The notes below the pieces were generated by a model. That model did no database searches and was not told the origin of the DNA. It saw nothing but the letters and a program-made list of their open reading frames with translations. A program made the translations under genes and the position numbers. 43,622 bases of DNA from a virus (taxonomy: Duplodnaviria > Caudoviricetes), in IMG/VR virus record IMGVR_UViG_3300032129_000019, positions 1 through 43,622 of that record; one strand, given 5' to 3'. Positions 1 through 43,622 of this stretch are shown here, piece by piece. Each line of letters opens with the position of its first letter. The stretch's first letter is position 1.

Positions 1-85
1 TAGTACATCATATAAATCTTAATCATGCAGACAACAGGATTGAAAATCTACGAATAATGAGTAGGAGTGAACATGGAAAATTACA
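1..85 (+). repeat. Terminal overlap, identical to 43440-43524 (left flank of the insertion site)
   Basis: Exact match TAGTACATCA...GGAAAATTACA at both ends; consistent with a circular assembly. Confidence 0.95.
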
Positions 86-149
86 ATATTTGTGCGGAAA
101 GCCCACTCTCTTTAGGTGTGGGATGGATAGCACTACTAAAATATACCAT

Positions 150-178
150 TAGACATGGTTATTTTAGTACGATATAAT
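150..178 (+). promoter_or_regulatory. sigma70/SigA promoter inside the mini-element
   Basis: TAGACA(150-155)-17 bp-TATAAT(173-178); the -35 lies in the loop of inverted repeat TACTAAAATATACCA/TGGTTATTTTAGTA. Confidence 0.75.
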
Positions 179-184
179 ATACTT

Positions 185-365
185 AAGTTTTGAAACGAGC
201 CATATACTATCGTTAATGTGTCAATTGTGATGCTTGATAGTGAAATTCTTGAAGAAAATAATTAGTTTTTATATGTTGTAATTTATAGTTTTCATTATAA
301 ATGAGAGTATAAAAGAAGTTATTTAGTATTCAAGAACCCCATTCATTTATGTGTGGGAGTTTCAG
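185..365 (+). ncRNA. Putative TnpB-type omega-RNA scaffold, copy 1 (guide would be 366 onward)
   Basis: Several stems covary with the copy at 42136-42315; ends at the IS605-type right end; 5' TTGAAAC(190-196) pairs with 3' GTTTCAG(359-365). Confidence 0.65.
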
Positions 366-34228: not shown

Positions 34229-34409
34229 GATCATTATTCAGTAAAAATGGGTACAAACGTTGGCGATATGGTAATTGTTTAACGCACTGTGAATATCACT
34301 ATTTGCAGTGCCTCAAATTCAACTCCATTAAAGGATAAAAAACTCAAATAATTTAACATCATTAGTAATATGTGGTACAATTATATTGATTAATTTTAGG
34401 GGGTATTCT

Positions 34410-35550
34410 ATGCTATATATTATTATTTTCATAAGTATGTCACTTGTGTGTTTTTACAGTTTTTTAAGCATCAAGAATAACACATTTATATTCATCATTT
34501 TCGGTATTGGACTTACTTTATTAAGTATGTTTAGATTCGGTTTTGGTATGGATTATTTCAGCTATTTAGTTCATTATACTCTTAACCCAAGCACAATCAA
34601 AGATGCAATTAGCAATCAATCACATGTAGATGTAGGATTTAGAATAATAATGGGTGTTTTTAAATATTTTAAATTAAATTACGAGGTATTTATCGCTGGA
34701 ATTAGTTTAATGATTATGTTTATGTACTTAAGAGTTATAAATAAAAATTCTAAATTTAAAATAATGTCTTTGTTAATTTTCTTTTCAGTTTATTATTCGA
34801 TTTATGTAAACAGTGCATTAAGACAAGGTATTGCAATAGTTATATTTTTTTACAGCTTATTACAAATACCTAAAAGAGGGACAAACACTTAAATATGTAA
34901 TTCTAATATTAATAGCTATGACTTTTCATAGTTCAGCAGTGGTGACATTGATAATCCCATTTATTAAGTTAGTTTATAAAAAAGCATTCAATAATAAGGT
35001 ATTCAATTTTTTATTATTGATGTTGTCATTACTGATATGTTTTTCAAATGCTAGCCAATTAATTCTTAAAATTGGTAGATTTTTAGGAATGTCTACATTA
35101 TATGAAGCATCATCATACAACCCATTCGCCATAGCATTAAGGATTATTTCACTCGCATTGATTTATACATTATATAAAAGTATTCCAAGCAAAGATGTTA
35201 GTGAATTTGATAAGTTCCAGATATACACCTATTTTATTGGTAGTGTCATATTCATATCGGCTTCTAATGTTCAAATTTTATCTAGAATATTAGAGTATTT
35301 TACTATTTTAGAAATAATCTTAATGCCAAATCTTGTTAGAAACATGAAATTCAACTTAAATAAATTCGCCGGATTATCTTTTATTATAGTACTGGTTGGG
35401 TTAATATTTATTAAAGATATGTCATTTTTTGTTGATAGAGGTCAATATTACAACAAAAGCATATTGGGGTACAAATACGTTTCAATATTTAATAAATACG
35501 AACTTTATGATTATAGATTTGTAGATGTGTATACTCTTGATACAGAATAA
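34410..35550 (+). pseudogene. EpsG/Wzy-like polysaccharide polymerase, split by a frameshift in a T7 run
   Basis: FR..FG.DY..Y, LRQGIA, FHSSA motifs; removing one T at 34845-34851 fuses the two ORFs. Confidence 0.8.
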
Positions 35551-35647
35551 GACAATAGGAAAATATGGCGACACAAAAGGTTAGAAAACTAGCCTCTTTG
35601 TTATATCTAAAAATACCAAAAAAAATATGAAAAGTGAGGTGAAAAAG

Positions 35648-35896
35648 ATGGAAGAAAATAAAAAAGAGGTTGCCCCTGAAGTACCGGTTCAAGAGCAACC
35701 CAAAAACTTATATTGTATGGCATGGCATCTACAAAGCTTAATTGAAGATGTTAAAAATGAATCAATAACAAACTTTTCAAAGCCTTGTGAAACATGTAAA
35801 TACTTAAAAAAATGTGACTTTGATTTCTATTCAAAAACAGAAGAGCTTACAAAGTTGACTGGTGTTAGATTCTCTGCATTAATTAAAAAGATCTAG
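35648..35896 (+). CDS. Hypothetical Cys-containing protein
   Basis: GAGGTG RBS; PCETCKYLKKC. Confidence 0.55.
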   Translation: MEENKKEVAPEVPVQEQPKNLYCMAWHLQSLIEDVKNESITNFSKPCETCKYLKKCDFDFYSKTEELTKLTGVRFSALIKKI

Positions 35897-41681: not shown

Positions 41682-42089
41682 ATGAATTTTATATTAATAG
41701 AGGAATTTTTAAAACAAAACAAAGAGGTGCAAGAGGTTTTTATGGAATGGTGGAAACCTCAAATAGGGGATTTAGTTTATGACAGAATTAGTATTGTAGG
41801 TGTTGTTGTGCCAGTGTTATGTATGGGTCAATATAGGACTAACTTAGATAAAACAAAGGTGACTCCGTTATTACAAATAAACCAACTTATTAGGTTTATT
41901 GAGGACAAAACAGAATGCAAAATTGAAATAGACTATTACACAGAAGAGGTTTCAATATATTTGAATTCGCTTGATAATGATGGAATATCACATTATAAAT
42001 ATTCGCCTTTTGAAAATTTTGGATTAGATTTATTAAAAGCTTTATGGAAAATAGCTTGTATTATAGCATTAGAGCAACACAAACATTAA
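41682..42089 (+). CDS. Hypothetical phage protein
   Basis: RBS; WWKPQIGDL..PLL..QLIRFIEDK. Confidence 0.7.
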   Translation: MNFILIEEFLKQNKEVQEVFMEWWKPQIGDLVYDRISIVGVVVPVLCMGQYRTNLDKTKVTPLLQINQLIRFIEDKTECKIEIDYYTEEVSIYLNSLDNDGISHYKYSPFENFGLDLLKALWKIACIIALEQHKH

Positions 42090-42135
42090 ACAATACAATT
42101 ACAAAATATCAAGCATGGGAATATAAAAAAATAAT

Positions 42136-42315
42136 AAGGTTTTGATATGAGCCTTTAAACTATCGTTAATTTATCCATTGGGATAATTGGTAGTAAAAGT
42201 CTTAGAGAAGTTATTTAGTTCTTATATGTTGTAATTTATAGTTTTTATATAAATGAGAGTATAGGAGAAGATAATGTATTTAAGAACCCCATGCCTTTAG
42301 GCGTGGGAGTATCGG
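42136..42315 (+). ncRNA. Putative omega-RNA scaffold, copy 2 / IS605-type right end without a left end
   Basis: About 80% identical by eye to 185-365 with compensatory changes; GAAC-CCCATGCC-TTTA-GGCGTGGG-AGTA-TCGG. Confidence 0.7.
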
Positions 42316-42416
42316 ATTACCCTCATACTGAAAGTTTGTTAGGGGTTGTGTGGGGTGTTTAAAATAGGATGTATGTCGTGGTTTGATTACATGATGAAGT
42401 AAAAGGAGGTAAACGA

Positions 42417-42911: not shown

Positions 42912-42948
42912 AAAAAGCAACTATACCTACATAATATAGTTGCTTTTT
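42912..42948. terminator. Bidirectional terminator
   Basis: AAAAAGCAACTATA...TATAGTTGCTTTTT. Confidence 0.8.
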
Positions 42949-43185
42949 AATATAGGTGGTCGGTCTGTCCACATTTCCTAACACATTTCTGTGTGGTGAT
43001 AGCTACCTGTTCTATCCTCTATATTAGTATAGTTGTTTTCTACATAAATTATAACTCTCTACCATGATACTTATATTATAGCATATATTAAGGTACATTT
43101 ATCCTTAAATTTGGAAATTTATTTTTTAAATAGGGTTGATTATGATATCAATTATGTGTTATAATATAAGTAAGGAGGTGATGAC

Positions 43186-43350: not shown

Positions 43351-43622
43351 ACATTGTGCTTTTAGTAACAGTTCTTATATTTCTTATTATAGATATTTAA
43401 TGGAAGATAAAATTGGCAGAAAGTTAGGCATTGACGAAGTAGTACATCATATAAATCTTAATCATGCAGACAACAGGATTGAAAATCTACGAATAATGAG
43501 TAGGAGTGAACATGGAAAATTACATGGAGGATTTAAAGGTGGAAGTAAAGGCGTACATAGAATTTCAACAAGTTTTAGTGTAGACAATGAAATTGTTAAA
43601 AAATTCAATGAAGTATGCAAAA
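43340..43622 (+). CDS. HNH endonuclease-RHH fusion, intact allele (continues into 465-544 on the circle)
   Basis: AAGGAGG RBS; YRYLMEDKIGRKL..EVVHHINLNHADNRIENL..SEHGKLH. Confidence 0.8.
   Translation, partial: MRDKHCAFSNSSYISYYRYLMEDKIGRKLGIDEVVHHINLNHADNRIENLRIMSRSEHGKLHGGFKGGSKGVHRISTSFSVDNEIVKKFNEVCK

Follow-up and report, generated by a model that had tools for sequence, protein, structure and literature searches.

The insert at positions 42103-42315, designated copy 2, is most likely a neutral, immobile scar: a right-end stub of an IS605-type element that lost its left end through mis-excision by TnpA. The window (the whole stretch of DNA analysed, 43,622 nt) is a circularly assembled tailed phage, in which a profile scan of 44 of the 149 listed ORFs identified terminase, portal, capsid, tape measure, endolysin, and DnaB-like helicase genes. 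The two ends of the window overlap and represent two alleles of one HNH gene, with and without a 281-bp insert (copy 1); the filled allele is located at 85-365 and the empty allele at 43440-43622. Copy 1 (85-365, plus strand, inside the HNH gene) is a two-ended mini-element of the PATE type and belongs to a different lineage from copy 2; it is bounded by TTAC and TCAG, and its left-end hairpin is present. Because copy 1 was 97.8-99.3% identical to elements in five Clostridium tagluense plasmids, it points to a host in the C. tagluense group. An 11/12 match to a sigma-70 promoter was located in copy 1 at 150-178, where full elements have the end of tnpB, which suggests that the lineage of this mini-element acquired an omega-RNA promoter of its own. 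Two further features of the window were recorded. A Skipping-rope RNA (RF02924) was detected on the minus strand at 42948-43026 (56.2 bits; gathering score 36.7). After the tail genes, at 34386-35896, a series of adjacent ORFs of a host-like protein rich in membrane segments was noted; the two that were scanned had no match in PHROG, and the series is possibly one broken moron gene.

Copy 2 comprises 213 bases, with a one-base ambiguity. The TTAC tetranucleotide at 42099-42102 (plus strand, as are all features of copy 2) is phage sequence outside the insert and constitutes the target, the TnpA left cleavage site, and the predicted TnpB TAM; it also stands directly before the left ends of copy 1 and of the related elements L017 and L035. 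The insert opens with the last eight codons of tnpB including the stop (42103-42126), in the same frame and with the same end as tnpB of L017 and of phage AR1086-1. A complete omega-RNA-type scaffold and IS right end follow at 42135-42315, recognized by identity to L017, covariation within the family, and fold stability. The right-end subterminal hairpin was placed at 42284-42307 by fold and alignment, with GAAC at its 5' foot. This GAAC is the predicted DNA guide for TCAG, a role assigned to it by analogy with IS608 (PMC3201880, in part). The right cleavage site at 42312-42315 reads TCGG in place of TCAG, owing to an A>G change at 42314; in a comparison of 69 right-end rows, 65 ended in TCAG, three had no end called, and TCGG was found in copy 2 only. 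The predicted guide (42316-42335) is the original right flank of the insertion.

Neither a left-end hairpin nor a left-end match was found in copy 2, and the insert begins eight codons ahead of the tnpB stop. Copy 2 bears the subterminal hairpin (42288-42307) and tetranucleotide cut site of an IS200/IS605 right end, the latter as the TCGG variant, and lacks the left-end hairpin and the tnpA and/or tnpB gene of an intact element. It does not qualify as a PATE, which keeps both ends and is mobile in trans, since it has no left end, is present as a single copy, and showed no empty allele in seven DNA runs. The view in the earlier note that this is an omega-RNA or right-end scaffold without a left end, apparently immobilized, is upheld by these observations, and copy 2 presumably cannot be excised as a unit.

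In BLAST searches, the scaffold was located immediately behind the tnpB gene of ISCbt1-like IS200/IS605 elements, and a pattern scan of species genomes returned 25 loci that included the parent lineage. The scaffold is likewise directly downstream of tnpB in the full-length relatives L017, L035, L087, L003, and others. Copy 2 was 96-97% identical over about 220 nt to L041, L019, L020, and L017, and differed from L083 at 4 of 213 nt. In the comparison with L017, an intact tnpA-tnpB element of the IS605 type from C. tagluense, a single difference was present in 183 nt (42133-42315), namely the A>G change at 42314 that converts TCAG to TCGG. L017 bears a left end, a tnpA gene (140.5 bits against NF033573, cutoff 55), and a tnpB frame that is open and contains the D, E, and D motifs; its TnpB scored 67.7 bits against NF040570, which is under the cutoff of 100 (E 1e-18). 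Copy 1 and copy 2 were 79.8% identical over 193 nt. The possibility that copy 2 is a drifted copy 1 was rejected upon identification of a parent at 96-99% identity in a second, intact lineage. Because L017 differs from copy 2 at only 1 of 183 positions, the differences between copies 1 and 2 are those between two IS lineages and are not changes born in the phage. The proposal of an older, decayed insertion is contradicted by the same near-identity to the right end of an intact element; the stub is young. In a literature search that covered a minority of subscription papers, nothing was found that describes ISCbt1.

The right flank of copy 2 was used as a query against 30 genomes of the genus, which led to the identification of an empty site. 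One real relative was recovered (L052/L177), located on a 5.4-kb phage-like contig and 84.8% identical to the phage repressor region over 1114 nt. L052 carries no insert and reads TTAC followed directly by ATTACCCTCATACT. The first 14 nt of the guide are identical to the sequence after TTAC in L052, with differences at guide positions 15 and 20. The L052 empty site establishes 42103-42315 as the insert, TTAC as its target, and the right flank of the element itself as the guide; as in IS200/IS605 elements, the insertion is on the 3' side of a fixed tetranucleotide, and the target was not duplicated. The interpretation of copy 2 as a domesticated RNA carrying a different guide is very probably mistaken, since the guide is a pre-existing flank. 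An empty site in relatives had been named as part of what would speak against that interpretation, and this part was found. The genome that holds the empty site (G017) also contains the parent right end, at 99% identity to copy 2, and, split over two pieces of contig, a TnpB match of 95-96%. In the normal arrangement TnpB targets the empty site of its element, according to part of 10.1101/2023.03.14.532601, and any RNA from copy 2 would be expected to direct host TnpB to no target other than the empty site of the stub itself. The ORF upstream of copy 2 had one relative (L016), which was in an unrelated context.

The statement that the guide has no full match elsewhere in the phage was confirmed, in that no TTAC-preceded match of 10-16 nt was found at up to two mismatches. 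Exact matches to 18 nt of the guide were present at 10 viral-contig loci; the two that were inspected were not preceded by TTAC, and these matches carry no weight for any reading. Patterns specific to copy 2 or drawn from its flanks detected no other carrier in viral contigs, and the one metagenome contig recovered (L067), which equals the window in both length and sequence, was excluded as an independent carrier. The only relative found is empty and no second carrier was detected; a locus conserved across relatives with a linked dead TnpB was not seen.

Copy 2 folds far better than its shuffled sequences (z -4.61; 0 of 200 shuffles as stable). The 5'-3' closing stem of the predicted fold appeared only when the 5' end was trimmed, for copy 2 and the parent alike, and Rfam gave no match to either copy 1 or copy 2. 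In a set of 17 family members, two-sided changes were present at 30 of the 54 stem pairs named, a value that was reached by none of 500 shuffles, and slid controls gave 9-15. Because the 17 sequences are related, this covariation is a sign of structure throughout the family and not of selection on copy 2. All of the sequence pairs quoted in the earlier note for the two copies were found in the sequence, and the paired changes that it described as compensatory relative to copy 1 are real; they were inherited from the second IS lineage and did not arise in the phage. Its further argument that TCGG preserves RNA pairing as G-U carries little force, given that 5 of the 17 family members are unpaired at this position while retaining A. 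With a complete covarying scaffold and a guide that has a TAM-flanked target, copy 2 has the make-up of a stand-alone omega-RNA.

The manner in which the left part was lost was addressed by comparing left-end-less right ends with their parents. The first base of copy 2 is the one that follows TTAC, and at the corresponding point the parent carries TAAG just upstream. Right ends were pooled from several locus scans, each was compared with its closest long relative, and 25 left-end-less candidates were picked by hand; matches at contig ends, elements bearing a left end, long elements, eight matches to other lineages at 64-67%, and four internal-deletion derivatives were left out. In this hand-chosen set, in which several stubs share a genome and breakpoint, 13 of the 25 start directly after TTAC, and 12 of these 13 break after T-N-A-G in the parent (TTAG in seven, one of them taken from the homologous column of L017, TGAG in four, and TAAG in one), the remaining one breaking after AGAG. 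Counted as distinct breakpoints, 6 of 7 follow T-N-A-G compared with 11 of 326 background positions (p about 1e-8, a value that ignores the hand selection). The rule was not followed by 12 of the 25 candidates, 11 of which have no TTAC while one has TTAC in both stub and parent. An empty site was confirmed for a second stub (L123, empty in L158), and a search for that of stub L122 found none.

T-N-A-G is a three-of-four match to the right cut site TCAG, and because the stubs start after TTAC at a parental T-N-A-G, cutting by TnpA at a cryptic TCAG-like site is the preferred explanation. Passages of PMC3201880 describe, for IS608, recognition of the cut sites through base pairs that they form with guide bases at the foot of the hairpin, and the joining of TTAC, upon excision, to the sequence beyond the right cut. 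A full tnpA-tnpB element, or a longer derivative, would first have inserted after the TTAC at 42099-42102. TnpA would then have cut correctly at the left end and, in place of the true TCAG, at the cryptic internal TAAG, and resealing of TTAC onto the internal cut would have removed tnpA and the left end along with all but the last codons of tnpB. Stubs of precisely this form would be expected from a right cut placed ahead of the true end, and the whole omega-RNA would have survived because the scaffold lies just downstream of the cryptic site. No full element was observed at this site, and the order of these events is inferred. The A>G change at 42314 would weaken the remaining cut site, and may have preceded and forced the wrong cut. 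TCGG likely weakens cutting because the A at -2 of the IS608 cut site forms a hydrogen bond that stabilizes the complex (PMC3201880, in part); it was not required for mis-excision, because other stubs keep TCAG.

An origin without TnpA, in which the left part was lost through slippage during replication or through recombination between short stretches of similar sequence, was also considered. If copy 2 is taken by itself, the same junction would result from a microhomology of two bases (AA) shared by the start of the left end and the internal point, which are alike over about 15 nt, and the 11 of 25 candidates without a junction TTAC indicate that other deletion routes exist. However, seven stubs (L099, L127, L128, L129, L138, L140, and L156) start with T after TTAC, which no microhomology explains because the left ends seen begin with A, and the clustering of breakpoints after T-N-A-G also argues against slippage, which we regard as very unlikely. 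Stubs sharing a breakpoint (65 or 58 nt) were observed to recur at different sites within a genome (L128, L129, and L140 in G002; L122 and L123 in G003), reflecting either repeated mis-excision at a hotspot or movement of the stub with a left end supplied in trans. In phage CD1801 (L002:2445-2715), a piece lacking the left end retains the final 25 codons of tnpB together with the whole scaffold; the TTAC at its start is also present in the parent.

The proposed mis-excision by TnpA resembles the erroneous boundary selection of GstTnpA, in which a motif-like site is used in place of the true right boundary. As reported in section 6 of 10.1101/2023.03.14.532601, that enzyme picks a wrong boundary at a motif-like site downstream of the end when the right-end motif has been mutated, a laboratory case involving a perfect motif. 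In contrast, the stubs described here are natural, their breakpoints are upstream and are three-of-four matches, and the true TCAG is mostly intact. No description of natural one-ended stubs or of breaks at internal TCAG-like sites was found in the same literature search, which covered a minority of subscription papers.

The weaker promoter that had been proposed for copy 2 (TTACAA-17-TATAAA, 42099-42127) was rejected. Its boxes score 3/6 and 5/6, it was not called by the promoter scan, 1221 sites in the window score as well, and it is a junction product of the TTAC target and the last eight tnpB codons. In RNA run X18 a single 133-nt piece was recovered (42153-42285, depth 3.4), which lies inside a stretch identical to the parent IS; because copy 2 and the parent cannot be distinguished there, it is no evidence either way. 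Lack of a promoter is compatible with activity, because TnpB can process its RNA out of a longer transcript (PMC10278001, in part) and works with RNA given in trans (10.1101/2023.11.20.567912, in part).

Under an alternative with the same origin, the stub is active: read-through RNA from the helicase operon is trimmed by host TnpB and loaded onto it in trans, and this TnpB cuts sister phages with the empty site and so helps to keep or spread the stub. The complete scaffold, near-identical to that of an intact element, is in keeping with such activity, as are the perfect match of TTAC and 14 nt to a real empty allele (L052), the cognate TnpB in the genome holding that allele (G017), and the apparent fixation of the stub in seven of seven DNA runs. 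The trimming of RNA from longer transcripts by TnpB also favors it, and stand-alone omega-RNAs are described as acting in trans in part of PMC10691335. Against these points, no promoter was called, whereas copy 1 has one matching at 11/12; X18 gave no RNA assignable to copy 2; and the only empty allele found belongs to a distant relative and differs at guide positions 15 and 20, with no empty allele in the phage's own populations. An active stub is thus considered unlikely. Quite unlikely, too, is the general form of this idea, in which TnpA mis-excision regularly makes immobile, protein-less omega-RNA genes and this phage has fixed one that is transcribed and cuts empty-site rival phages via host TnpB. 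If true, it would be a transposon accident turned phage weapon, possibly also hitting a host recombinase gene.

The state of the site in natural populations was assessed in contigs from seven DNA runs, which drop rare alleles and may sample one habitat; they contained no joint across 42103-42315 and no A at 42314. Single contigs spanned the stub without differences in X10, X14, and X17. The stub appears fixed in all seven runs, an outcome that neutrality allows but does not predict. Left-end sequence was attached after TTAC at 41871-41876 (X15 and X16) and at 42387-42391 (X16), and the parent's tnpB end was present in X16. The loose left ends are minor new insertions in the phage population, and together with the tnpB end they indicate that the IS family still hits the phage. 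One contig of X13 joins the right end (42315) to the base after the TTAC at 42387-42390, with a short side of 27 letters and a likeness of 85; this is either a separate insertion or an adjacent deletion made from the end of copy 2.

A domesticated stand-alone guide RNA, redirecting TnpB or TldR to an outside target such as a host serine-recombinase gene, or acting as a sponge for TnpB, was evaluated by comparing the guide with host genomes and requiring TTAC. This comparison, suggested by the earlier note, did return an exact match of TTAC together with guide bases 1-14, located in an accessory serine-recombinase gene in one of the 30 genomes (G021). In the same recombinase family, 13 guide bases matched in G017 and 12 in G022; all three matches are to the antisense strand (L079:1501-1518, L132, and L080). 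Markov models predicted 0.005-0.011 exact hits in the 30 genomes and 0.11-0.20 hits of TTAC plus 12, and matches of 12-14 nt in three of the seven recombinase orthologues are the evidence in favor of domestication. However, of the seven genomes in which the gene is present, four have orthologues with mismatches inside TTAC or guide bases 1-10, and G001 has no match to the guide at up to two mismatches. The matching string was already in the empty site and so predates the insertion. As a control, the empty site of copy 1 gave seven one-mismatch hits, none exact, in the same 30 genomes, versus three hits at 0-1 mismatch for the copy 2 guide outside its empty site. In addition, no second phage with the stub was found, and no tnpB or TldR-like gene was detected in the window by tblastn. 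The exact match in G021 is probably due to chance, and domestication is regarded as highly improbable. A reading of the 18-nt host match as an attP site was dropped, as no integrase was present among the 44 of 149 listed ORFs scanned.

The closest known relatives of copy 2 are the ISCbt1-like tnpA-tnpB elements of the IS605 group with IS608-type TTAC targeting, e.g. that of phage AR1086-1 (OR397124.1). Copy 2 shares with these a right-end scaffold immediately after tnpB, a TTAC target without duplication, and a guide that derives from the right flank and corresponds to the empty site; unlike them, it has no left end, no tnpA, only eight codons of tnpB, and a TCGG end. TldR loci reportedly combine a nuclease-dead tnpB with a guide to a conserved outside target. 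Copy 2 resembles such systems in being a TnpB-type guide RNA fixed at one locus, but neither a dead tnpB nor a guide to a conserved outside target was found. As a protein-less locus with a complete scaffold that could work only with TnpB in trans, it is also similar to PATEs and stand-alone omega-RNAs. However, PATEs keep both ends (10.1101/2023.03.14.532601 and PMC7290912, each in part) and the stand-alone omega-RNAs acting in trans are described, in part of PMC10691335, as mobilized elements. Unlike these mobile, two-ended forms, of which copy 1 is one, copy 2 has one end and no called promoter.

As a locus, copy 2 is an ordinary transposon scar, and the useful part of the finding is the junction rule, which offers a simple and testable path for the loss of everything except the right end from IS605-type elements. 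The rule also carries a warning, in that such stubs, when compared with the wrong IS lineage, mimic conserved orphan guide RNAs. Occasionally the stubs leave behind a whole, immobile guide-RNA gene, which is the first step that any domestication would need.
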